From positions 11,284,001-11,348,000 of the forward strand of contig OZ024745.1 in assembly GCA_964016885.1 (NCBI GenBank): DNA of 64,000 nucleotides, written 5' to 3'. Below, one piece after another: positions 1 through 26,322 of this stretch (positions are counted from its first letter, which is position 1; every line of letters begins with the position of its first letter). A program made the translations under genes and the position numbers. This DNA comes from Eledone cirrhosa. Lineage: Eukaryota. The notes beneath the pieces were generated by a model that did not search any database, had not been told where the DNA came from, and saw only the letters and a program-made list of their open reading frames with translations.

Positions 1-3000
1 ACTAAACATATGGTAGTAACTAAACCTTACAGTAACTAAACATATGATAGTAACTAAACATATGGTAGTAACTAAACATATGGTAGTAACTAAACATATG
101 ATAGTTGCTAAACATCTGATAGTAACTAAACATATGATAGTAACTAAACATATGGTAGTAACTAAACCTGACAGTAACTAAACATATGATAGTAACTAAA
201 CATATGATAGTAACTAAACATATGATAGTAACTAAACATATGGTAGTAACTAAACATATGGTAGTAACTAAACATATGGTAGTAACTAAACATATGTTAG
301 TAACTAAACATATGATAGTAACTAAACATATGATAGTAACTAAACATATGATAGTAACTAAACATATGATAGTAACTAAACATATGGTAGTAACTAAACA
401 TGACTAACTAAACATATGATAGTAACTAAACTTATGATAGTAACTAAACATATGGTAGTAACTAAACATATGATAGTAACTAAACATATGGTAGTAACTA
501 AACATATGGTAGTAACTAAACATATGATAGCAACTAAACATATTATAGCAACTAAACATATGATAGTAACTAAACATATGATAGTAACTAAACATATGGT
601 AGTAACTAAACATATGATAGTAACTAAACATATGATAGTAACTAAACATATGATAGTAACTAAACATATGATAGTAACTAAACATATGGTAGTAACTAAA
701 CCTGACAGTAACTAAACATATGATAGTAACTAAACATATGATAGTAACTAAACATATGACAGTAACTAAACATATGGTAGTAACTAAACATATGATAGTA
801 ACTAAACATATGGTAGTAACTAAACATATGATAGCAACTAAACATATGACAGTAACTAAACATATGGTAGTAACTAAACATATGATAGTAACTAAACATA
901 TGGTAGTAACTAAACATATGATAGTAACCAAACATATGATAGCAACTAAACATATGACAGTAACTAAACATATGGTAGGAACTAAACATATGGTAGTAAC
1001 TAAACATATGGTAGTAACTAAACATATGGTAGTAACTAAACATATGATAGTAACTAAACATATGACAGTAACTAAACATATGGTAGTAACTAAACATATG
1101 ACAGTAACTAAACATATGGTAGTAACTAAACATATGGTAGTAACTAAACTTATGGTAGTAACTAAACATATGGTAGTAACTAAACATATTGTAGGAACTA
1201 AACATATGGTAGTAACTAAACATATGGTAGTAACTAAACATATGGTAGTAACTAAACATATGATAGCAACTAAACATATGACAGTAACTAAACATATGGT
1301 AGTAACTAAACATATGGTAGTAACTATACATATGATAGCAACTAAACATATGGTAGTAACTAAACCTGACAGTAACTAAACATATGGTAGTAACTAAACA
1401 TATGGTAGTAACTAAACATATGGTAGTAACTAAACATATGACAGTAACTAAACATATGGTAGTAACTAAACATATGGTAGTAATTAATCATATGGTAGTA
1501 ACTAAACATATGGTAGTAACTAAACATATGATAGTAACTAAACATATGATAGTAACTAAAGATATGGTAGTAACTAAACTTATGATAGTAACTAAACATA
1601 TGGTAGTAACTAAACATATGGTAGTAACTAAACATATGGTAGTAACTAAACATATGATAGCAACTAAACATATGGTAGTAACTAAACATATGATAGCAAC
1701 TAAACATATGATAGTAACTAAACATATGTTAGTAACTAAACATATGACAGTAACTAAAAATATGACAGTAACTAAACATATGGTAGTAACTAAACATGAC
1801 AGTAACTAAACATATGGTAGTAACTAAACATATGATAGTAACTAAACATATGGTAGTAACTAAACATATGGTAGTAACTAAACATTTGGTAGTAACTAAA
1901 CATATGATAGCAACTAAACATATGGTAGTAACTAAACATATGACAGTAACTAAACATATGGTAGTAACTAAACATTTGGTAGTAACTAAACATATGATAG
2001 CAACTAAACATATGATAGTAACTAAACATATGACAGTAACTAAACATATGATAGTAACTAAACATATGATAGTAACTAAACATATGGTAGTATCTAAACA
2101 TATGGTAGTAAATAAACATATGACAGTAACTAAACATATGGTAGTAACTAAACATATGGTAGTAACTAAACATATGACAGTAACTAAACATATGGTAGTA
2201 ACTAAACATATGGTAGTAACTAAACATTTGGTATTAACTAAACATATGATAGCAACTAAACATATGATAGTAACTAAACATATGACAGTAACTAAACATA
2301 TGGTAGTAACTAAACATATGACAGTAACTAAACATATGATAGTAACTAAACATATGTTAGTAACTAAGCATATGATAGCAACTAAACATATGACAGTAAC
2401 TAAACATATGGTAGTAACTAAACATATGATAGTAACTAAATATATAGCAGTAATTAAACATATGATAGTAACTAAACATATGGTAGTAACTAAATATATG
2501 GTAGTAACTAAACATATGACAGTAACTAAACATATGATAGTAACTAAACATATGGCAGTAATTAAACATATGATAGCATCTAAACATATGATAGTAACTA
2601 AACATATGGTAGTAACTAAACATATGACAGTAACTAAACATATGGTAGTAACTAAACATATGATAGTAACTAAACACATGGTAGTAACTAAACATATGAT
2701 AGTAACTAAACATATGGTAGTAACTAAACCTGACAGTAACTAAACATATGATAGTAACTAAACATATGATAGTAACTAAACATATGATAGTAACTAAACA
2801 TATGGTAGTAACTAAACATATGATAGTAACTAAACATATGGTAGTAACTAAACATATGGTAGTAACTAAACATATGATAGTAGCTAAACATATGATAGTA
2901 ACTAAACATATGGTAGTAACTAAACCTTACAGTAACTAAACATATGATAGTAACTAAACATATGGTAGTAACTAAACATATGGTAGTAGCTAAACATATG

Positions 3001-5189
3001 ATAGTAACTAAACATATGATAGTAACTAAACATATGGTAGTAACTAAAGATATGGTAGTAACTAAACATATGATAGTAACTAAACATATGATAGTAACTA
3101 AACATATGATAGTAACTAAACATATGATAGTAACTAAAAATATGGTAGTAACTAAACATGACAGTAACTAAACATATGATAGTAACTAAACATATGATAG
3201 TAACTAAATATATGGTAGTAACTAAACATATGATAGTAACTAAACATATGGTAGTAACTAAACATATGGTAGTAACTAAACATATGATAGCAACTAAAGA
3301 TATTATAGCAACTAAACATATGACAGTAACTAAACATATGGCAGTAACTAAACATATGGTAGTATCTAAACATATGGTAGTAACTAAACATATGATAGCA
3401 ACTAAACATATGATAGCAACTAAACATATGATAGTAACTAAACATATGATAGTAACTAAAGATATGGTAGTAACTAAACATATGATAGTAACTAAACATA
3501 TGATAGTAACTAAACATATGATAGTAACTAAACATATGATAGTAACTAAAAATATGGTAGTAACTAAACATGACAGTAACTAAACATATGATAGTAACTA
3601 AACACATGATAGTAACTAAACATATGGTAGTAACTAAACATATGATAGTAACTAAACATATGGTAGTAACTAAACATATGGTAGTAACTAAACATATGGT
3701 AGTAACTAAACATATGATAGCAACTAAACATATGATAGCAACTAAACATATGATAGTAACTAAACTTGATAGTAACTAAACATATGGTAGTAACTAAACA
3801 TATGATAGTAACTAAACATATGATAGTAACTAAACATATGATAGTAACTAAACATATGATAGTAACTAAACATATGGTAGTAACTAAACCTGACAGTAAC
3901 TAAACATATGATAGTAACTAAACATATGATAGTAACTAAACATATGACAGTAACTAAACATATGGTAGTAACTAAACATATGATAGTAACTAAACATAAG
4001 ACAGTAACTATACATATGATAGTAACTAAACATATGATAGTAACTAAACATATGACAGTAACTAAACATATGGTAGTAACTAAACATATGATAGCAACTA
4101 AACATAAGACAGTAACTATACATATGGTAGTAACTAAACATATGATAGTAACTAAACATATGGTAGTAACTAAACATATGTTAGTATCTAAAGATATGAT
4201 AGCAACTAAACATATGGTAGTAACTAAAGATATGATAGTAACTAAACATATGATAGTAACTAAACATATGATAGCAACTAAACATATGACAGTAACTAAA
4301 CATATGGTAGTAACTAAACATATGATAGTAACTAAACATATGGTAGTAACTAAACATATGATAGCAACTAAACATATGACAGTAACTAAACATATGGTAG
4401 GAACTAAACATATGGTAGTAACTAAACATATGGCAGTAACTAAACATGACAGTAACTAATCATATGACAGTAACTAAACATATGGTAGTAACTAAACATA
4501 TGGTAGTAACTAAACATATGGTAGTAACTAAACATATGGTAGTAACTAAACATATGGTAGGAACTAAACATATGGTAGTAACTTAACATATGGTAGTAAC
4601 TAAACATATGGTAGTAACTAAACATATGGTAGTAACTAAACATATGGTAGTAACTAAACATATGGTAGGAACTAAACATATGGTAGTAACTAAACATATG
4701 GTAGTAACTAAACATATGGTAGTAACTAAACATATGATAGTAACTAAACATATGGTAGTAACTAAACATATGGTAGTAACTAAACATATGATAGCAACTA
4801 AACATATGACAGTAACTAAACATATGGTAGTAACTAAACATATGGTAGTAACTAAACATATGATAGCAACTAAACATATGACAGTAACTAAACATATGAT
4901 AGCAACTAAACATATGGTAGTAACTAAACCTGACAGTAACTAAACATATGGTAGTAACTAAACATCACAGTAACTAAACATATGGTAGTAACTATACATA
5001 TGATAGCAACTAAACATATGGTAGTATCTAAACCTGACAGTAACTAAACATATGGTAGTAACTAAACATCACAGTAACTAAACATATGGTAGTAACTATA
5101 CATATGATAGCAACTAAACATATGGTAGTAACTAAACCTGACAGTAACTAAACATATGGTAGTAACTAAACATCACAGTAACTAAACAT
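1..5189. repeat. 18-bp tandem satellite (ACTAAACATATGRTAGTA), running off the left edge of the window
   Basis: Uninterrupted 18-bp period with GGT/GAT/GAC variants and occasional 16-bp units (AAACCTGACAGTAACT, AAACATCACAGTAACT). The MIVTKH/FSYYHM ORFs are translations of this repeat. Confidence 0.98.
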
Positions 5190-7361: not shown

Positions 7362-7565
7362 GGTACAGCGACCCGCCTTGAAGCGGAAAAGGAGATAGAC
7401 AAATACCGGGTATTATCCGGCCACTTCCTCTTCGCACTGGTCACCATCGATACCTCAGGGGTTCTCGGACCCCATATTGTCGAGCACCCCCAGAAGATCG
7501 GAACGTCAACATCTCGTCTGAGGAAGGAGCCCCTTAAGGTGAGGTGGCTGTTGCAGCAGGTGTCG

Positions 7566-7568
<3 letters not shown>
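7362..7568 (+). mobile_element. Fragment of a CRE-like non-LTR retrotransposon (C-terminal restriction-like endonuclease region)
   Basis: Open frame ...EAEKEIDKYRVLSGHFLFALVTIDTSGVLGPH...KIG...KEPLKVRWLLQQVSL. It aligns by eye with the 12063-12326 fragment and with the KY..L...F....E/DT.G..G...IG...EP....WL.Q.VS pattern of CRE-type C-termini. Confidence 0.7.
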
Positions 7569-7614
<46 letters not shown>

Positions 7615-7618
<4 letters not shown>

Positions 7619-8590
7619 AGTTAATATAAATTAATTGTTTCTACTTTTGGCACAAGGCCAGCAATTACCCAGTGCATTACTGGTACTTTATTTTATCGAC
7701 CCCGTAAGGATGAAAGGCAAAGTTAACCTAGGCGGGATTTGAACTCAGAATGGCAAGGGCCGTAACTCTATGCATCAAAGCATGGCATCCAACCCTCTAC
7801 CGATACTGCCAATTCACCGCCCAAGTTAATATAAATTAATATATGATAAACACATAAGTGTTTGTATTGTAAAAGACGAAGTTAGCTAGAATGAAATAAA
7901 CTAATTCAAATAAATATAGTTTGCCTGTCTCGATTTAAAATAATAAATCAATAAAAACAAACCCATATTGGCAATAACCGTGATACCTGGACAAATTTAA
8001 ATTTCAAAATCCAAACCTGTTCCGCAGACGAATTTGAATTTCAAAACCCAAATAAGTTTCGCAACGATAGTATAAAAAAAATTAATTGTAAAGGACTGTT
8101 TGAGTTTATAACTCTAAATATAATATAATATTACGGCTCCTTTTGTTGGGCTAATTTTTAATCCCATATAAACGGCTGTTATTTCTAGCGCCATGCGTAT
8201 GAGATAGTTAGTGAGTGGGAAACCACGTGCGTTTGCGCTTGTACACCAGACCTCCAAAAATATTTCGAGGTGAAACATCCTAATTTTCTGGATACCTGTT
8301 GATGAACACAGAAAATGGAATCTTTCACATTTTTTTATACTATCGTTGCGAAACTTATTTGGGTTTTGAAATTCAAATTTGTCTGCGGAACAGGTTTGGA
8401 TTTTGAAATTTAAATTTGTCCAGGTATCACGGTTATTGCCAATATGGGTTTGTTTTTATTGATTTATTATTTTAAATCGAGACAGGCAAACTATATTTAT
8501 TTGAATTAGTTTATTTCATTCTAGCTAACTTCGTCTTTTACAATACAAACACTTATGTGTTTATCATATATTAATTTATATTAACTTGTA
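7615..8590. repeat. Long inverted repeat (~260-bp arms, 7822-8079 and 8330-8590); fold-back or MITE-like, with the left arm interrupted by a SINE
   Basis: The arms are reverse complements with one mismatch seen. The right end TTAACTTGTA matches TACAAGTTAA at 7615, upstream of the SINE. Confidence 0.9.
7636..7821 (-). mobile_element. tRNA-derived SINE with 19-bp target-site duplication
   Basis: The minus strand has an A box (TGGCAGTATCGG), a B box (GAGTTCAAATCC) and the central GCCTTTCATCCTTACGGGGTCGATAAAATAAAGTACCAG motif. It is flanked by CAAGTTAATATAAATTAAT at 7617-7635 and 7822-7840. Confidence 0.93.
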
Positions 8591-8672: not shown

Positions 8673-8751
<79 letters not shown>

Positions 8752-8833
8752 ACAGCGACACCTGCTGCAACAGCCACCTCACCTTAAGGGGCTCCTTCCT
8801 CAGACGAGATGTTGATGTTATATATATATATAT

Positions 8834-9108
8834 TGTTATGCTTTGGGAGGGTCATGTTGCCAATAAGAAACACACGCACCAGTTGCTTTCACTCAAATTA
8901 ATTATAAATTAAATTTATAAATTTAAGAATTTATAAATTTCCGGTTGGTTGGTTGGTTCCACAACCAGACGATTGTTCATATATTGTCAAAGTTCTTTCG
9001 TCACACATTCTGTGACCTCTTCAGTGACTGGGGATTCTTTTCTTTGTTTTGTGTCTCTCCTTTGTTCTGTCCTACGCCATCTTGTTTGATGGCGTAGGAC
9101 AGAACAAA
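8834..9108 (-). mobile_element. Short interspersed element carrying a hammerhead motif (Penelope-like pLTR or retrozyme-like family), with a terminal 21-bp fold-back
   Basis: Nearly identical to 33831-34056. Related TGTTATACTTG(G) ends occur at ~20296 and ~63984. The hairpin arms are 9061-9081 and 9088-9108. Confidence 0.7.
8986..9028 (-). ncRNA. Minimal type I hammerhead ribozyme (imperfect)
   Basis: Minus strand reads GUCA-CUGAAGA-g-GUCACA gaaug UGUGAC-GAAA-GAAC-UU-UGAC. It has a 4-bp stem I, a 6-bp stem II with one extra G after A9, and a CUU cleavage triplet. Confidence 0.6.
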
Positions 9109-9289
9109 TATAATGTGCATGCATAACTACAGTGCGTGTAACCGAGAGTGTACCAATGTATATAAATATATACACATTTCAAATTTGAAAGCATGAAAAA
9201 TACGAATTTCTTTGAAGATTGAAAATATCGTAAACATCTTCAATTGATTGTCGGATTTTATTGAATCCTCAGCAGAAGAGTCACAATGA

Positions 9290-9386
<97 letters not shown>

Positions 9387-9471
9387 GTGAAGTTTTTTTA
9401 CAAAATGAAAATAAACCGAGGTGTCCTACACGAGTGAGATGTGAGAAAAAACCACAGACCCTCCATCTCAA

Positions 9472-9515
9472 TTCTACTTTTGAAAAGCACAAGACCTGCG
9501 AAACCGGTAAAGGAA
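9472..9515 (+). ncRNA. Minimal type I hammerhead ribozyme, U3-A8 core variant
   Basis: Reads uucuaCUU-UUGAAAA-GCA caagacc UGC-GAAA-CCGG-UA-AAGgaa. Stem III is the palindrome ACCGGU, the triplet is GUA, and C3-G8 is replaced by U3-A8. Confidence 0.6.
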
Positions 9516-9589
9516 CCAAATAAATATATATTTTTATAAAAAAGACTCCAGCTGCATTTTCGTTTTCATCTTTTTTCCTTATATACATA

Positions 9590-10210
9590 TATATAATATT
9601 AAAATATAAATATTAATAAAATAGATGTTCTTTTGATCAATTACATTTTATTATACATATTTCGGATGTACAACAGTACGTCCTCATCAGACAAAATATA
9701 ATGATACATGACATACCCTGAGATGTTAAATGGTTAAGATTTAATCAAGGTAGTGATTAACCTAAGAGAAAATTTAACATATATACCCTAATTATGAGAA
9801 AATGCGAATACGTAATAAATTCATTAGAGAATGTGAGTAAGAAAAACGTTGCTTACTATGATACTACAATATATCTAGGAAAACATCTCATGAATCATAA
9901 CAGCCAGTGATAGCCACTGGAAAAGGATTTATAAAGAGGGAAAGATAAAGGGGGTGATATATGCTGAAGGAGATTTTTTCCGAAAGTTAAACGGTTAAAT
10001 TTGAAAATATTTAATTTATAATATTAGGGTGAAGACTCAATATTTCGGGATTTTTTTGCTGGTTATTTATATATTAGTTTTATAAATTCTATAAGTGTGT
10101 TAACATTTCTAAGCTTCTGAGTTTTATGAGGGTAACATTTAAAGGATTTAGCTGGCACATCAAGAATGAAATATTATACTGTTGATTATTTTCCTAAATT
10201 TAAACTTTAA
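9590..10210 (-). mobile_element. Decayed 3' end of a Penelope-like element (possible GIY-YIG C-terminal remnant, then pLTR with hammerhead)
   Basis: The stop-interrupted minus-strand frame ...NNQQYNISFL...KLRSLEMLTHL...INNQQ... loosely resembles the L..LE....LN.Q end of PLE endonucleases. It lies upstream of the hammerhead at 9645-9697. Confidence 0.35.
9645..9697 (-). ncRNA. Minimal type I hammerhead ribozyme
   Basis: Minus strand reads AUUUUGU-CUGAUGA-GGACGUAC uguu GUACAUCC-GAAA-UAUGUA-UA-AUAAAAU. It has a 7-bp stem I (one GU), 7 of 8 pairs in stem II, a near-palindromic stem III and an AUA triplet. Confidence 0.82.
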
Positions 10211-10213
10211 CAA

Positions 10214-10637
10214 AGATACCAACATATTAGGTATGTAAAGCTTTTGAAGTACTTATTGTTATACATATTTAAATAACGATTATGTATATAGATATATGTT
10301 AATGAGCCAGTATATTTTAGGTAATAGCGACGTAGATAAAAATAAAATAAAATAATAGATTGAGGCATGTTAAGGTTAAATATACACCTATATATAACTG
10401 GGTGTAAATGTATTAATTATTCTTTAACGGAGATACCAACATATTAGGTATGTAAAGCTTCTGAAGTATTTATTGTTAGAAATATTTAAATAACGATTAT
10501 GTATATAGATATATATTAATGAGCCAGTATATTTTAGGTAAATAATAACGAAAATAAAAATAAAATAATAGATTGAGGCATGTTACGGTTAAATATACAC
10601 CTATATATAACAAGGTGTAAATGCATTAATTATTCTT
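10214..10637. repeat. Tandem duplication of a ~210-bp AT-rich unit
   Basis: Copies start at AGATACCAACATATTAGG (10214 and 10431) and end at ATTAATTATTCTT. They differ by several substitutions and indels. Confidence 0.92.
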
Positions 10638-10807
10638 AGTTCAGAGTGTACGCAATCAAGAAATTTAGAAGTTAACTAAAGATTATGTATATGAAGATAT
10701 AGGGAGGTATATATATATATATATATATTAGGTATTAGTGGTGTAGTATACTTTAGGTAAATGATAACGGTTATAATTTTATAAAATAGAGTTCAACGTG
10801 TTACATT

Positions 10808-10900
<93 letters not shown>

Positions 10901-11035
10901 TTCATTTTTTCCGTTTATCGTTTTCGGTACCCCGGCCGATTAACTCACTCGATTTGCAAATTAGGCTGCTCAGCCGTTAATATGCATAAGGAAAGTATAT
11001 ACTTTCAGACGTTCAACCATCTGGCAGGAAGGTAT

Positions 11036-11078
11036 ACGTTGCTGACGATAACTAATAAGCTTGAAACTAGTACAGCGT
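11036..11078 (+). ncRNA. Minimal type I hammerhead ribozyme with a decayed stem II
   Basis: Reads ACGUUG-CUGACGA-uaacuaauaagcuu-GAAA-CUAG-UA-CAGCGU. It has a 6-bp stem I, palindromic stem III ACUAGU and a GUA triplet. Stem II pairs poorly. Confidence 0.62.
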
Positions 11079-11220
11079 TCCTTTGTCAGTGTTGAACAAA
11101 TGAGCAACGATGGTTGCTAGACACTGTACGGCTTAATTCGGGATGTTTGTTTACAAACACACCGAGATATTATAATAGATGTTCGGTGAATCCATACGTA
11201 CATATATATATGTGTGCATG

Positions 11221-11274
<54 letters not shown>

Positions 11275-11376
11275 CTACTGTACGTCTGTATACATATATG
11301 TATGTACGTATACATACTTATATTTAAGTATCAGCCGTACTAAGAGTGGGAAATGAAATTTCGTTTCATTTTTTCC

Positions 11377-11418
<42 letters not shown>

Positions 11419-11561
11419 TGGCGCTTTAGTTCGGATCTAGCTGCAGAAACGGTCAGAGCTCAGCCGTCGGGGTCCTGAATCTTTTCATATTACCCACTCT
11501 ACTACCCAAGTATCGAGTACTCTGGTGGGTTATCGTCTACCTGGTTTTTACCACACCCTGT

Positions 11562-13407: not shown

Positions 13408-13916
13408 CTCTCTCTCCCTCCCTCCCTGTCTGTCTGTCTATATGACGATCTCTCCCTCCCTCCCTCCCTCCCTCCCTGTCTGTCTGTCTATATGACGATC
13501 TCTCTCTCTCTCCCTCCCTGTCTGTCTGTCTGTCTGTCTGTCTATATGACGATCTCTCTCTCTCTCCCTCCCTCCCTCCCTCCCTGTCTGTCTGTCTATA
13601 TGACGATCTCTCCCTCCCTCCCTCCCTGTCTGTCTGTCTGTCTGTCTGTCTATATGACGATCTCTCTCTCTCTCCCTCCCTGTCTGTCTGTCTGTCTGTC
13701 TATATGACGATCTCTCTCTCTCTCCCTCCCTGTCTGTCTGTCTGTCTATATGACGATCTCTCTCTCTCTCCCTCCCTCCCTGTCTGTCTGTCTGTCTGTC
13801 TATATGACGATCTCTCTCTCTTTCCCTCCCTCCCTGTCTGTCTGTCTATATGACGATCTCTCTCTCTTTCTCTCCCTCCCTCCCTCCCTCCCTGTCTGTC
13901 TGTCTATATGACGATC

Positions 13917-13985
<69 letters not shown>

Positions 13986-14000: not shown

Positions 14001-16968
14001 TTTGTTTCTTTTATTTGCCACCAGGGCATCAAAAGTGGGACAAGTACAAAGGGGGGAGTTTACACAAAAAGGCGTCCTCAATAAGGAGGAGGCAATAACA
14101 ATATATAAAAATAAAATAGAATATTACAAAAAATTAAATTTATAACAAAATCCTCAATAGAGAGGAGGCGCCTTGGGGGGTCGCACACACCCCCGAAAAA
14201 AGTGTGCAACCCTTTTCCTCAGGAGCACAGAGAGGGGGTGCTCCCTCGTTCCTTCCTCCCTTCCACCTACAGGCTTATGTAAAGAGAAGGCCCATTCACA
14301 CGGGCCATTCTCGCCACTTTCACCCACCTTTCATAAAAACGGCTGGGGTGGAGCACCTCTCTCTCCATCCTGATCCTTCTTCCGAAATAATATCGGAAGA
14401 AACGGACCAGTTGTTGGCCAGAGAGAAAGGTGCCTGACCTCAGTCCTTTCAGACGCGTCCACCATACAACTTCTTTCACCATGGCTATTACGCACAGAAA
14501 CACCGCCTCTCCTTCATCTTTGAAGTGGGGAGGCGGCTTGATCATTACAATAGACTCGGTGGTCAACCGGATCGGTCCCACCCTTGACAGCAGTTGTTCG
14601 ACATAGCCCCACAGATCGGCTACGCCCGAGCAGTGTACCAATGCGTGTGCAACGGTTTCCTCGTCGCACACGCATCTGGGACATATCTTTTTGGCGGGGT
14701 CCCTACCCGGGCGCCCGTGTCTGTAGAGCTTTTCTCGAACGGGTAGAGCCCCTCGGTAGCACTGCCAGGCCAGGGACTTCTGGAAGTTGTCCATAGGTCC
14801 CGGGCTGAATGTCCTACCGAACAGGCTGGCCAGTTCGTCCTCCTCCATGTCTAGGGCTTCTCCGAGGGCGTCGTCGCACCTGCTGCGTACCAGCCCTCTA
14901 TAGAATGTTGCGGTGGAGTCTCCACTGATAACCGGGTCCGCCTGCCAGAGGGCGGTGAGCGCCTGGGCACACTCAGTGTGCCAGGCGCCCAGTTTTCTCG
15001 GTCTTTGCTTGACCCAGGATTGCAGCTCGGTGAGTGAGACGAGTCTGGGAAAGGTTCGTCTCACAAGCGAGGACCACACCGGTTGACCGGTGAGGAATAC
15101 GTAGAGGTGCCGTAGCCTTAATGCGTGTTTACGCATCATTAGCCACGGCATCCCCAGCCCTCCTTTCGAAGGGTGTTGACAGCAGATGGATCTCCTCACC
15201 ATAGGAGCCCGCCTCTTCCAAAGGAATTGGAAGAGCGCGCGCTCCATCTTGGCGAGGATTTCCCTTGGGCACTACGGTCAGGCGGTAGTAGATGACGGAC
15301 GCTATATAGGTGTTCGCCACCTCCGCCCGACCTTTCAGGGATAGTTTGCAACTGGCCCACTTCCGGGTCAGTGCAAACACCCTGTTCGTAACCTCCGCCC
15401 AGTTTTTCTCCACCTGGAGGTCCGGTCCGAACCAGACCCCGAGCAACTTCACCGGGCCCTCCGTCCAGCGTCCGACGACGCCATCGGAGGGCATCGGTAT
15501 GCTCCTCCACGTGCCGAGTTGCAAACCGATCGACTTGTCCCGGTTCAGCTTAGCCCCTGTGAACCTTTCGTACTCCTCCAGTAAGGTGCCGACCGCCTCG
15601 ATTTCGGAGGCCGTCGACACCATTACTGTCACGTCATCGGCGTAGGCCGACACTGCTTTCCGCAATCCCGGTTCCAAAGGGATGCCCTGCAACAACTCCA
15701 ACTTCCGCAATAGTGGCTCGAGAGTCAACACATACAGAAGGGAGGATAGAGGGCACCCTTGTCGGATGGACCGCGCGATTTTGAACGGCTCCGAGAGGTA
15801 GCCGTTCACCTTGACCCTAGAGCAGATGCGGCTGCTGTGCATAGCAGTGATCCAGCCCCTGAAAACGGGTCCGAAGCCTGCCGTCGCTAGCACCGCATCC
15901 AGGTAACTATGGTCGACCCTATCGAACGCCTTAGATTGATCCAAGTTGATCAGAGCCCCACCAAAGCCGGGTTCGTTCCCAACCCTCTCTATGATGTATC
16001 GCATGAGGTGGAGGTTGTCATGGATGGACCTGGACGGGATAGCGCATGTCTGCGCATCTCCCACCAGGTTGCCCACGACAAGCGCCAACCTCTTTGCTAG
16101 CACCTTGGCCAAAATCTGTAACTCTGTATTTAGCAGAGTTATGGGCCTGAAGTTACTTATTTCGTCCCCTTGTTCTCGTCCTTCCTCACTAGCGTGACTA
16201 CGCCCTTGGTCACAGTACAGGGAATTCTCCCGTTCTGTTGCCAGTTGCAGTAGACCGCCTCGAGGAGATCGGGGAACAAGTCCGGCATAGCTAGATATAA
16301 TTCGTAAGGAAGACCATCGAGATCCGGGGATTTGCGTTTGCCGCATTGGCTCAGCACGTCCTCTATCTCAGCGGCCGAAATCGGCTCCTCGCAGGACTTC
16401 GCCTCCCTGTCCGAGAGACGCGGCAGGCCGTCGAGGTATGGACCGAAGTCCACGTTCCCAACCGGCTCCCCGCCCCTCCCGAACAGTCGGGCAAAGTGCC
16501 TTTGAAAGGCCTCACACATCTGCTTAGGCTCAAGAATCGCCCGTCAATCCAGGTCTTGCAAAGACCGGATGGTGGATTTAGTTCCACTGTTGGCCTCTGT
16601 CACGCGGGCCCAGCTAACAGCTTTGGCCCCCTCGTTCCCTAGAGCACGTATTTTACTTCGGACAACGCAGCCTTCGTGCTTCGCGTCGAAAAACTGGCTC
16701 AAAGCCGTTCTCGACGCTAGCACTCTGGCCACGTCGCCGCTTCTAATTGCCTCTTCTACTCTATCTATTAGCTCCCTCTCCTTCCTATTCCTATCCGCAG
16801 CTAGAACCTTACTAAATTCTATCGAGACTAATCTAATCTCTCTCTTTAGAGATACCCACCACCTGCTGTTGACGATCGCTCCAGTCCACCGTTCCTTAAC
16901 TAACGTACTAATCCGATCCCTGTAAGCTCTACTTGCCGGCAAGGACAAGTTGAGCTTCCAGTAACCGG
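14001..16968 (-). mobile_element. 5'-truncated L1/Tx1-type non-LTR retrotransposon (inactive)
   Basis: The minus strand starts at PGYWKLNLSL, the post-endonuclease motif. It has RT motifs (KSPDLDGLPYE, NFRPITLLN, DQSKAFDRVDH, RQGCPLS, YADD) and a CCHC zinc knuckle (CPRC...ETVAHALVHC). The 3' UTR ends AATAAAAGAAACAAA. Confidence 0.95.
14267..16968 (-). pseudogene. Disrupted LINE ORF2 (RT plus zinc knuckle; endonuclease lost)
   Basis: Pieced together from ORFs 16544-16948, 16157-16519, 15129-16346 and 14267-15247. There is an in-frame TGA at 16544-16546 and frameshifts near ~16165 and ~15265. Confidence 0.9.
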
Positions 16969-17164
16969 CTCTCCCTGTCTGTCTGTCTGTCTGTCTGTCT
17001 ATATGACGATCTCTCTCTCCCTCCCTCCCTCCCTGTCTGTCTGTCTGTCTATATGACGATCTCTCTCTCCCTCCCTCCCTCCCTCCCTCCCTCCTGTCTG
17101 TCTATATGACGATCTCTCTCTCTCTCCCTCCCTCCCTCCCTGTCTGTCTGTCTGTCTATATGAC

Positions 17165-17213
<49 letters not shown>

Positions 17214-17575
17214 GTCTGTCTGTCTGTCTGTCTATATGACGATCTCTCTCTCTCTCTCCCTCCCTGCCTGTCTGTCTGTCTGTCTATATGACGATCTCTC
17301 TCTCTCTCCCTCCCTGCCTGTCTGTCTGTCTGTCTATATGACGATCTCTCTCTTTCTCTCCCTGTCCGTCTGTCTGTCTGTCTGTCTGTCTGTCTATATG
17401 ACGATCCCTCCCTCTCTCTCTCTCTCTCTCTCTCTGTCTATCTGTCTATATGACAATCTCTCTTTCTTTCTCTCTTTCTCCCCCCCTCTCTCACACACAC
17501 ACACTCACTCTCGCTCTCTCTCTCTGTCAATATGACGATCTCACTCTCACTCTCTCACACTCTCTCTCTCTCTCC
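16969..17575. repeat. Composite minisatellite, right part (same family as 13408-14000)
   Basis: The same TATATGACGATC-anchored unit resumes immediately after the LINE 5' junction. Confidence 0.95.
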
Positions 17576-18921: not shown

Positions 18922-19010
18922 GAAAAGATTCAGGACCCACTCTACTACCTCAAGTATCGCGTACTCTGGTGAGTAATGGTCTAACTGGTTTTTACTACCT
19001 CCAATCTGTG

Positions 19011-19110
<100 letters not shown>

Positions 19111-19575
19111 AGAAGAAGATTATTAATTTTGGGTTCACATTATCGCTTTTCTGCACTAAAAAGCGGTAATGTGAAACTTTAATAACGATGGGAGTAAACA
19201 GCAATTTAATCGGTGTTATATATATACTTATGTATGTAGATCCGTATATATATGGCGGTTGGACAAACAATTCAATTAAGTGAGACTATTTCATGACCAC
19301 AACCCCTTTTATGGTTGTTCAGACAATGGGAAACAAGCAAGGGAGAGAACTCCTATAATTTGAGACGATCCAAGTCTTTTGGAATAACTTAAGGCAATAT
19401 AGTGTGAGTGGACTAAAAGCAGCGTCGGTATGTTTCGATTTTAGATCTCATAAGCGAAGCATCTTTAGCAAGTTAAACTGGACTGGGCAAGTAGATATAG
19501 GAAAGATCTCTCTCTCTCTCTTATATATATATATATAATATATAAGATCAAAAGATGGTTAAAGGAGTTCCATGT

Positions 19576-19644
19576 ATTTTATTATGCGCATTTCAAAAAC
19601 AAACATCATCATGCAATAATATTTGTGTTTTCATCAGATAAAAC
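19576..19644 (-). ncRNA. Type I hammerhead ribozyme with minimal stem III (left arm copy)
   Basis: Exact reverse complement of 19690-19758. Confidence 0.85.
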
Positions 19645-19689
19645 AGGAGAACATGATATGAAGGCTAAAAAACACTTGTGGATAGTGCA

Positions 19690-19758
19690 GTTTTATCTGA
19701 TGAAAACACAAATATTATTGCATGATGATGTTTGTTTTTGAAATGCGCATAATAAAAT
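19690..19758 (+). ncRNA. Type I hammerhead ribozyme with minimal stem III (right arm copy)
   Basis: Reads GUUUUAU-CUGAUGA-[36-nt stem II, 15 of 16 pairs including GU, loop GCAU]-GAAA-UGCGCA-UA-AUAAAAU. Stem III is the palindrome AUGCGCAU, with predicted cleavage after 19751. Confidence 0.85.
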
Positions 19759-19885
19759 ACATGGAACTCCTTTAACCATCTTTTGATCTTATATATTATG
19801 TATACTCCAGTCCTACAAACTGTAGAGTGCTTCTTATCCGATATCTGCATTGCTTTATTGTACTACAATAAAACTCACCTCCTAC

Positions 19886-19970
<85 letters not shown>

Positions 19971-20046: not shown

Positions 20047-20232
20047 CCGTATTTTGACTAAAGAAATTAAAGAAATTGTTTAGCCTGATAGTGGGGTTAA
20101 GAACCCTCGGAGAAATAGAAAAAGATGAGTATTGACGTACATGTACGTCAATACTCATCTTTTTCCATTTCTCCGAGGGTTCTTAACCCCACTATCAGGC
20201 TAAATAATTTCTTTAATTTCTTTAGTCAAAAT

Positions 20233-20236
<4 letters not shown>
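20047..20236. repeat. Spacerless palindrome with 95-bp arms
   Basis: Centre is GACGTACA|TGTACGTC at 20141/20142. Two mismatches seen. The right arm abuts (TA)n. Confidence 0.95.
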
Positions 20237-20299
<63 letters not shown>

Positions 20300-20674: not shown

Positions 20675-20742
<68 letters not shown>

Positions 20743-20743
<1 letters not shown>

Positions 20744-20866
20744 TTACATGAATCAAAGTTCTGTTTAAACCATTTATTCACTTACAATTGTTTCTTCCAA
20801 ACCTCGGTTTGGAAGAAACAATTGTAAGTGAATAAATGGTTTAAACAGAACTTTGATTCATGTAAT
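20743..20866. repeat. Perfect hairpin with 61-bp arms and a 2-nt loop
   Basis: Arms are 20743-20803 and 20806-20866; the loop is TC. Confidence 0.95.
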
Positions 20867-21030
20867 TTCTATATAACTGCTCTGTAGAACAACTGATGTA
20901 ATTACATTGAGCTATTTATCTTACTGGTAATAAGGTAGTAATAAATTACTGTCTTTCACTATTTAGGGTTTAAAATGTATATAACTATAAAAGGTTATAG
21001 TATATACATAACCATAAATAGTATCCTTAA

Positions 21031-21188: not shown

Positions 21189-21348
21189 TATAATTGAATA
21201 TAAAAGGGAGATAAATACAGATATAAACATATATGTGTTCATATTGTTAATAGTTAGTATTCTTTTTAACCTAGCGAACCTAGTCCTTTACGATTTGAAC
21301 ACATATATGTTTATATCTGTGTTTATCTCTCTTTTATATTCAATTATA
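21189..21348. repeat. Inverted repeat with 53-bp arms and a ~54-bp spacer
   Basis: 21189-21241 versus 21296-21348, with two mismatches. Confidence 0.9.
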
Positions 21349-24677: not shown

Positions 24678-25079
24678 GTGTGTGTAAATATTTACTTCTG
24701 CGTTCACAGATTGATTTTTTTAGTTTCAGAAGATCCCGTTAAGGGTGAAAGCAGCGATTCTTTGCTTAAACTTTAATCTGTTATTTTAATATATATATAT
24801 ATATATATATAATGATATATTCGTGTACAGATATTTTTGCATACACAATAACAAAATATAAACAAAAGTATTTATTTCGCGATAAAGTATTGATTTTCTT
24901 CGCACGGAAAAAAACCCTGGTAATCTACGACGAATTGTTTTTATAAGCACAAAATGTAGACAAATTCCGATGCCGAGGTATTCCGTACTTCTCTGTACTG
25001 TTATATATATATATATGTCCCAAGGCTCTGATACCATCAACACTATAAACACAGAGCTGGCATATCTAAGAACTGACTA

Positions 25080-25135
25080 ACTACCTGATGAGGTCATAGC
25101 CATTCAATGGCTATCATCGAAATATATATAGCAGT
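25080..25135 (+). ncRNA. Minimal type I hammerhead ribozyme
   Basis: Reads ACUAC-CUGAUGA-GGUCAUAGCCAU uca AUGGCUAUCAUC-GAAA-UAUAUA-UA-GCAGU. Stem II has 11 of 12 pairs, stem III is palindromic, the triplet is AUA and stem I has 4 of 5 pairs. AAUAAA follows. Confidence 0.78.
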
Positions 25136-25683
25136 AAATAAAGGATTATGAGTTCATGCAATTGACTTAGGTTTCGTCACTATATATATATATATATATA
25201 TATATAATTATATATTCGTGTACAGATATTTTTGCATACACAATAACAAAATATAAACAAACGTATTTATTTCACGAGGCTCGATAAGGATAAATATATA
25301 TCAAATATAGAAGAACTCTAGAGCAAGTGAAATTATTTAATACCATTGTAGACAGATTTCTCATTATAATATTTTAAAACATAAAATCAGTTAAAGATAA
25401 GATTTTTATTTTGAGTAATTACCACATATCATTTTTGATATGAACATATAAACCTACACACTAAACACTCGACGCTATGAAATTTATAGATTTTATTGAC
25501 ACTTTCTTCTATTTAAATTTATTCATTAAAAGTTTTAATTAAAATTATTAAAAATATAAACTTATTTTTAATTTTTAATGTACAAAAATTCAACTCTCTT
25601 TAAAACAACAACAAAAACTGTCCATTATAAATCATTTTTTAGCCGTTTTATAAGATTGTATATTTAGAGATCGTTGATAATAC

Positions 25684-26322
25684 CATTGCTGTATCGAAGG
25701 AATATGGAACTTGGTGGGGTTGCTGGTTTAGTTGCCGACGACCCCACCATGCCACAGGTTGTACTGGGTTACATTGCTCTAACCAAGGAATATGGAACTT
25801 GGTGGGGTTGCTGGTTTAGTTGCCGACGACCCCACCATGCCACAGGTTGTACTGGGTTACATTGCTCTAACCAAAGAATATGGAACTTGGTGGGGTTGCT
25901 GGTTTAGTTGCCGACGACCCCACCATGCCACAGGTTGTACTGGGTTACATTGCTCTAACCAAAGAATATGGAACTTGGTGGGGTTGCTGGTTTAGTTGCC
26001 GACGACCCCACCATGCCACAGGTTGTACTGGGTTACATTGCTCTAACCAAGGAATATGGAACTTGGTGGGGTTGCTGGTTTAGTTGCCGACGACCCCACC
26101 ATGCCACAGGTTGTACTGGGTTACATTGCTCTAACCAAGGAATATGGAACTTTGTGGGGTTGCTGGTTTAGTCGCTGACGACCCGACCATACGACAGGTT
26201 GTACTGGGTTACATTGCTCTAACCAAGGAATATGGAACTTGGTGGGGTTGCTGGTTTAGTTGCTGACGACCCCACCATGCCACAGGTTGTACTGGGTTAC
26301 ATTGCTCTATCGAAGGAATATG
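25684..26322. repeat. 88-bp minisatellite, 7 near-identical copies, each with an internal GC-rich hairpin
   Basis: The period is exactly 88 (CATTGCT at 25684 and 26300). Each unit contains TGGTGGGGTTG...CGACCCCACCA. Confidence 0.97.

Follow-up and report, generated by a model that had tools for sequence, protein, structure and literature searches.

The window (the whole 64,000-nt stretch of DNA analysed) sits in the 3.0-Gb genome of Eledone cirrhosa and is rich in simple repeats, with long satellites toward its ends: a 33-bp unit repeated 721 times at 39691-63195 and an 18-bp unit repeated 290 times at 1-5189, the latter continuing upstream in locus L364 (L numbers designate the genomic loci that we fetched for comparison). 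A smaller array of seven 88-bp units lies at 25684-26322. Hammerhead-ribozyme motifs are found in a cluster of about two kilobases and at two sites further downstream (Table 1). By BLAST against all the fetched loci, the cluster was split into the separate repeats called here modules 1 to 5; a single composite element spanning the region was rejected, as elsewhere the modules are found apart from one another and in different orders. A sequence-only reading of this DNA had described short modules parted by (TA)n tracts. Long tracts do lie between modules 2 and 3 and between modules 4 and 5, but modules 1 and 2 have none between them, and the TA runs between modules 3 and 4 are short. Neither are all the modules short, given that module 4, which contains an internal duplication of ~210 bp, spans 1.2 kb. 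In the same way, what had been taken for a pair of motifs at 19.6 kb is one element with two inverted arms.

Table 1. Features of the window; coordinates are those of the window and element assignments are predictions from sequence comparison.
Feature	Position	Strand	Description
Module 1	8833..9108	-	5'-truncated 3' end (pseudo-LTR) of protein-coding PLE, CX4CxxC linker
Module 1 hammerhead	8986..9028	-	C3-G8 core, non-palindromic stem III
Module 1 short 5' fold-back	~9062-9107		3' end of module adjoins (TA)7 at 8819-8832
Module 2	9120..9282	-	Old-family fragment; decayed hammerhead 9237-9279
TA/TG tracts between modules 2 and 3	9293..9379		Shared target and junction sequence
Other TA/TG tracts	8674-8741, 8819-8832, 10811-10894, 11380-11417		
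Module 3	9380..9590	+	Neptune-type PLE 3' end; hammerhead 9477-9512
Module 3 inverted tail	9380-9437		Head-to-head with sense copy
Module 4	9600..10810	-	1.2 kb of 3' UTR and pLTR, Hydra-type PLE; hammerhead 9640-9702
Module 5	10900..11379	+	One unit of ~430-bp non-coding tandem retrozyme; hammerhead 11036-11078; 3' end adjoins (TA)19
Family E	19535..19888	.	Single head-to-head inverted insertion, Hydra-type PLE 3' end
Family E hammerheads	19575-19645, 19690-19758	-, +	~85-nt tail on right arm only
Module 6	25012..25181	+	170-bp Hydra-type PLE 3' end, truncated at internal TA-like site; hammerhead 25080-25135

Several other repeats accompany these features. A broken non-LTR retrotransposon, which we take to be L1/Tx1-like, occupies 14020-16960 on the minus strand (RT frame matching PF00078, E 1.9e-26) and is bracketed by two arrays of one ~50-bp CT/CTGT minisatellite (13410-13983 and 16983-17475). 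A perfect inverted repeat of 259 nt with a 249-nt spacer lies at 7822-8588. The same piece of ~60 bp is found in opposite orientations at TA tracts, at 7505-7570 and 8755-8815; the translated peptide of its longer copy (7380-7571) may resemble the C-terminal end of a non-LTR element. A short, TA-flanked dispersed repeat at 11425-11560 (with a similar one at 18925-19010) reached a coverage of 54-69 in the fetched loci, where it is often beside PLE ends; no hammerhead was detected in it with our descriptor. There is also a SINE, presumably of an octopod-like kind.

The motifs were delimited with a type I descriptor, either strict or relaxed to three stem II pairs, that covers the U3-A8 core variant and a U/U-flanked stem II. 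Perfect 13-nt cores with their stems were found in modules 1, 4 and 5, in both arms of family E and in module 6, and the module 3 hammerhead was matched once the descriptor admitted the U3-A8 core. The type I order of a 13-nt core (C3-G8 or U3-A8) with stems I and II is thus present in the window copies of six of the seven families, the exception being module 2, whose window copy is decayed although the full core is kept in 7 of the 29 loci of its family. The seven sites listed by the sequence-only reading were therefore all present where it placed them, the decay of the second one included, and they are minimal type I hammerheads of the kind known from Penelope-like elements (PLEs) and retrozymes. 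Its description of stem III as often palindromic holds for five families (self-pairing of 1.0 in modules 3, 4, 5 and 6 and family E; ACCGGU in module 3 and ACUAGU in module 5) and not for module 1 (0.67). The idea that the stem sequences are all unrelated fails, because the hammerheads of module 4 and family E, both with Hydra-type parents, share stem I. The module 1 hammerhead carries an additional nucleotide after A9 and a U at position 17, and stem II of module 5 is flanked by U/U. A decayed core was considered for module 3 and rejected, since U3 and A8 were found in all 85 of the copies retrieved by BLAST; U3-A8 is a fixed family variant, a compensatory swap of C3-G8.

Over positions 8901-11150 the strict descriptor gives two matches, a number reached in none of 2,000 dinucleotide shuffles, and the relaxed descriptor gives four, the best shuffle having two (in one of the 2,000). 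The motif density is thus not matched by shuffled sequence under either setting. The notion that AT-rich repetitive DNA produced the motifs by chance could point to the Rfam scan of the whole window, in which none of the 105 matches at E<=1 was a hammerhead (most were miRNA models on TA/TG tracts), and to the folding of the monomers: only the module 4 motif was clearly better than its own shuffles (z -2.5), the other six ranging from z +1.05 to -1.71. Such weak folding is expected of minimal motifs without a stable stem III, and it was not counted as support. Against chance stand the shuffle controls, the fixed position of the motifs behind PLE ORFs, the compensatory C3-G8 to U3-A8 swap and the conservation of the core, which is intact in most of the BLAST-retrieved copies of each young family (56/60 for module 1, and 70/85, 34/37, 61/73, 54/57 and 54/61 for the others); the module 2 query recovered the window copy alone in this count. 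We consider the chance reading next to impossible, already refuted by the shuffles together with core conservation. The hammerhead motifs are real, though ordinary, and self-cleavage is predicted. Covariation of the stems within families seems modest: pair 3 of stem I in module 5 is UG in 52 copies, GU in 7, AU in 7 and UA in 4, and two AU pairs of stem II in family E are GU in 8 of 57 copies. Besides, A-C mismatches have amplified in stem I of module 6 (30 of 61 copies) and in stem II of module 5 (20 of 73), and since such non-pairing variants have multiplied, cleavage may be weak or dispensable.

For five of the seven families (modules 1, 3, 4 and 6 and family E) the search for parent PLEs coding for RT and GIY-YIG was successful: longer genomic copies continue from the hammerhead-bearing sequence into such an ORF. 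These five are therefore 5'-truncated 3' ends of protein-coding PLEs and not the short non-autonomous elements that the sequence-only reading had proposed, while its expectation that the families are dispersed in the genome was borne out. By their motifs, three of the parents appear to be Hydra-type and two have a linker of the Neptune/Nematis type. Among these copies is L061, a full-length copy of the module 3 family, with a 938-aa ORF in which Pfam detects both RT and GIY-YIG and with the module 3 hammerhead in both pLTRs, 4,979 nt apart (the search gave 1,861 first-look candidates). In the module 1 family (835 first-look candidates) the GIY-YIG frame of the same family lies directly upstream in 6 of 29 loci, ending ~220 nt before the hammerhead; L356 has a 569-aa RT frame, and L098 the linker and part of the GIY-YIG domain. 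The linker, of the form CX2-5CxxC and ahead of a C-terminal GIY-YIG, is CX4CxxC in both L061 and L098; the choice between the names Neptune and Nematis is a provisional one, based on motifs and not on phylogeny.

The Hydra-type assignments follow the motifs defined by Craig 2021 (PMC8557442), namely a CxCX5C linker, CxxC and CxH in the EN and DKT in the RT, and not a reference RT tree. These motifs are found in L180 and L363 for module 6 and across L359-L361 for module 4, and, in the part inspected, the linker and EN motifs in L267 for family E. Of the 29 loci selected by their EN, 19 carry the module 6 hammerhead at 0.9-1.3 kb beyond it, and L363 has an 847-aa ORF with DKT, CxCX5C, CxxC and CxH, of which the nearest Atlas clusters are unnamed proteins, some of them carrying HTH_animal or GIY-YIG; Pfam detected no domain in the Hydra-type ORFs of L363 and L359. 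Twelve of 29 loci have a Hydra-type protein upstream of module 4 and on its strand; DKT is present in L359, and L361 has the CxCX5C linker and a pair of hammerheads separated by 4.4 kb (1,603 candidates with a 1-kb UTR query, used in place of a 201-bp query that gave mostly AT-rich end matches). For family E, the hammerhead in L267 follows 1,258 nt after the end of an open Hydra-type RT and EN frame; this link relies on that one complete locus, from the even sample described below, and two partial ones (L240 and L194), and the ORF of the family was reached in none of 25 loci selected by fold-back. The point of 5' truncation varies among copies, there are two alternative 3' ends per family, and in L061 and L361 the pLTRs are in partial tandem, with two hammerheads around the ORF. 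Further PLE families with hammerheads of their own behind a GIY-YIG were seen in L055, L031, L038, L060, L064, L065, L067 and L075, a second U3-A8 family among them, and the catalogue of all fetched loci holds many more hammerhead types. An endonuclease query of the Hydra type (L180:2629-3084) returned 59,869 first-look candidates, which is not a copy number, and 150 of the 150 scored matches had at least 85% identity, so the Hydra-type clade must be very abundant in this genome.

Two families have a different organization. Module 5 (779 first-look candidates) is in tandem in 10 of 29 loci, which represent eight distinct arrays of up to five units, and has an inverted copy in 12 of 29; no linked PLE ORF was found within 1.5 kb upstream, one of the 29 loci having an unrelated element there. 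Because its units are non-coding, of ~430 bp, in tandem and free of a linked ORF, it can be classed as a retrozyme, and it appears to be the only window family with this tandem non-coding organization. Module 2 has 72-77% identity to its best genomic copies, sometimes in tandem with a spacing of 343-368 bp, and no parent ORF in the 1.5 kb upstream (where one of 29 loci had an unrelated, much younger element); it is an old, probably retrozyme-like family. Non-LTR retrozyme organization was not found in the five ORF-linked families, so that the non-autonomous description suits module 5 and possibly module 2 only.

The association of these elements with TA repeats, as anticipated, is clear. A (TA)>=4 tract begins within 6-16 nt after 115 of 132 ends (87%) of the five PLE families, against a background of 1.7-3.7%, although the true enrichment is smaller than this raw ratio because the loci lie in TA-rich neighbourhoods and the background is evenly sampled DNA. 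Only loci that had not been chosen by a query holding the end of that family entered the tally, and module 5 (9 of 22 ends at TA) was left out because its tandem units run past the end. All 22 ends found in the 29 EN-selected loci adjoin TA. Many copies have TA on both sides, truncated 5' junctions included, and different families are found directly end-to-end at the same tract. The elements therefore likely insert into TA repeats, and TA could also be added or expanded at insertion.

To place the cluster against the genome we used forty 10-kb stretches at fixed, evenly chosen positions. There were 32 strict matches in these 400 kb against 1.3 in shuffles, a few of them in no recurring family and possibly false, corresponding to ~2.4x10^5 motifs genome-wide (bootstrap 1.2-3.8x10^5, weighted by chromosome class). 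In this sample (TA)5 was present within 150 nt downstream of 69% of 35 motifs and of 22% of random positions, and 6.3% of the bases were in (TA)>=4 tracts. One of the forty stretches (L289) held five motifs in 1.9 kb, from fewer families than in the window. The window cluster is locally dense but not exceptional.

Among the inverted insertions of modules 1 and 3 and family E, exactly one arm is tailed in 56 of 61 head-to-head pairs, and none has two tails. The rule is not clean in module 5 (30 pairs with one tail, seven with none, five with both), and the single pair of module 4 has two tails. The two arms of family E differ by 2.3%, against 5.6% to other copies, and are each other's closest in 15 of 20 cases; for module 1 the values are 3.5% and 6.3% (6 of 17) and for module 3 they are 12.1% and, for random copies, 13.6% (5 of 17). 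Closer arms would fit the copying of one template, a pattern that gene conversion would also give. Other fold-backs were seen by eye near 20050-20237, 20730-20870 and 21210-21340; they may be PLE inversions and have no hammerhead detected by the descriptor.

Taken together, the region is very probably the product of independent insertions of several PLE families and one tandem retrozyme, each contributing a hammerhead-bearing 3' end and clustered via TA. The motifs would most likely cluster because TA repeats are where the elements end and probably where they insert. The GIY-YIG of the element would nick (TA)n and the RT would prime on the 3' end of the RNA and usually stop early, which would explain why a pseudo-LTR with its hammerhead alone remains. 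Were the RT to prime again at a TA-like position 55-95 nt in from the end of the RNA, the inverted arm that lacks a tail could result. As insertion would leave TA on both sides, the target would be renewed and later elements could stack alongside. The hammerhead, by analogy with the literature, may trim RNA of the precursor or tandem kind, dimerizing by way of its palindromic stem III.

The alternative put forward by the sequence-only reading, a community of short ribozyme retroelements that amplify as such with PLE proteins supplied in trans, is true of module 5, with its ORF-less arrays, and possible for module 2. Short derived copies acting as sources could account for the shared TA-like site at which many module 6 copies begin and for the likeness of fold-back junctions among family E copies. 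For the region as a whole we find it unlikely: the same sequences run on into ORF-bearing elements, 5' ends vary, the shared starts fall at TA-like microhomologies, and equal lengths are favoured in best-match lists that were picked for likeness to the window copy. It is also conceivable that the insertions themselves made or lengthened the TA tracts, by RT slippage on the UA-rich RNA end, with clustering due to tolerance in gene-poor DNA. That in every family the "short" end terminates in TA-like bases, and the large share of sampled bases in TA tracts given above, would agree with this. We hold it for distinctly improbable as the main cause, given the TA on both sides of many copies, truncated 5' junctions among them, the different families end-to-end at one tract, and the listing of (TA)n as the preference of nearly all Hydra families in Craig 2021 (PMC8557442). 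TA targeting and TA synthesis are not mutually exclusive.

The insertion of PLE families and one retrozyme at TA repeats does not amount to the undescribed system that had been suspected, as its features are already in the texts of Cervera & de la Pena 2014 (PMC4209133) and Craig 2021 (PMC8557442). The former describes minimal PLE hammerheads that fall into many families within one genome and sit for the most part in truncated elements. It reports a palindromic stem III, low activity as dimers, an extra base after A9, the U3-A8 core and pairs on opposite strands at distances of 100-700 bp; the latter (Craig et al. 2021) reports inverted truncated copies with a one-sided tail, the Hydra motifs and the (TA)n preference, and its supplement an Octopus Hydra PLE with hammerhead and (TA)n preference. 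Accordingly, the families of modules 4 and 6 and family E have the same CxCX5C linker, CxxC and CxH, and modules 4 and 6 the same DKT, as the Hydra-clade PLEs, Hydra-1_Obim of Octopus bimaculoides included, as well as the C-terminal GIY-YIG, 3' hammerhead, (TA)n ends and 5'-truncated inverted copies (PMC8557442), and the U/U flanking of stem II in module 5 is as in published Hydra-clade hammerheads (PMC8557442). They differ in that none of the 364 fetched loci contained the Hydra-1_oBim hammerhead motif as published (PMC8557442), in their long 3' UTRs of ~1.1-2 kb, and in abundance, few families outside cnidarians being reported in PMC8557442. With the Neptune/Nematis-type PLEs, modules 1 and 3 between them share the RT, CX2-5CxxC linker, C-terminal GIY-YIG and hammerhead in both pLTRs (PMC4209133; Craig 2021), and the U3-A8 core, extra nucleotide after A9, opposite-strand pairs and mostly truncated single copies (PMC4209133); U3-A8 was published from Schistosoma Cercyon elements (PMC4209133), and its fixation in the Neptune-type family of module 3 is a difference.

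Non-LTR retrozymes were defined by Cervera & de la Pena 2020 (PMC7229834), and a recent study derives retrozymes from PLE pLTRs and reports cleavage in one of nine dimers (Li, Clavereau & Pollet 2026, 10.64898/2026.07.22.740005). Module 5 has the same non-coding unit with one type I hammerhead, occurs from monomers to 5-mers and co-exists with PLEs (PMC7229834; 10.64898/2026.07.22.740005). It is unlike the published retrozymes in its minimal, Hydra-style hammerhead instead of a canonical one, its PLE-style inverted ends and its TA junctions (PMC7229834), and no parent pLTR was identified for it. What the window holds is thus one retrozyme and families that are new within PLE clades already known, and no new class of element. 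A repeat annotation of Octopus vulgaris lists 31 recently active Penelope-like families, its available text making no mention of ribozymes (PMC13282606), and no genome-wide census of cephalopod hammerheads appeared among the titles and abstracts searched, a scope outside which most subscription papers fall.

What these data add is scale, with six or more families carrying hammerheads in a single large invertebrate genome, and material for tests: near-intact parent ORFs (938 and 847 aa), a young family in which the U3-A8 core is fixed, a young retrozyme and a one-tail rule that can be counted. The set could serve to study how PLEs prime and what the pLTR hammerhead does. A much bolder proposal, which we regard as very unlikely, would join the huge hammerhead load (~2x10^5), self-renewing TA nests in which retrozymes and PLEs of several clades are stacked, and, as several families share compatible palindromic stem IIIs, heterodimer cleavage of nest read-through transcripts across families into a source of chimeric circles and new retrozymes. 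If this were true, the genome would have one of the largest hammerhead loads recorded and TA nests would be the birthplace of retrozymes, and the one-tail rule would be the trace of priming twice, either on a single RNA or on a ribozyme-paired RNA dimer.
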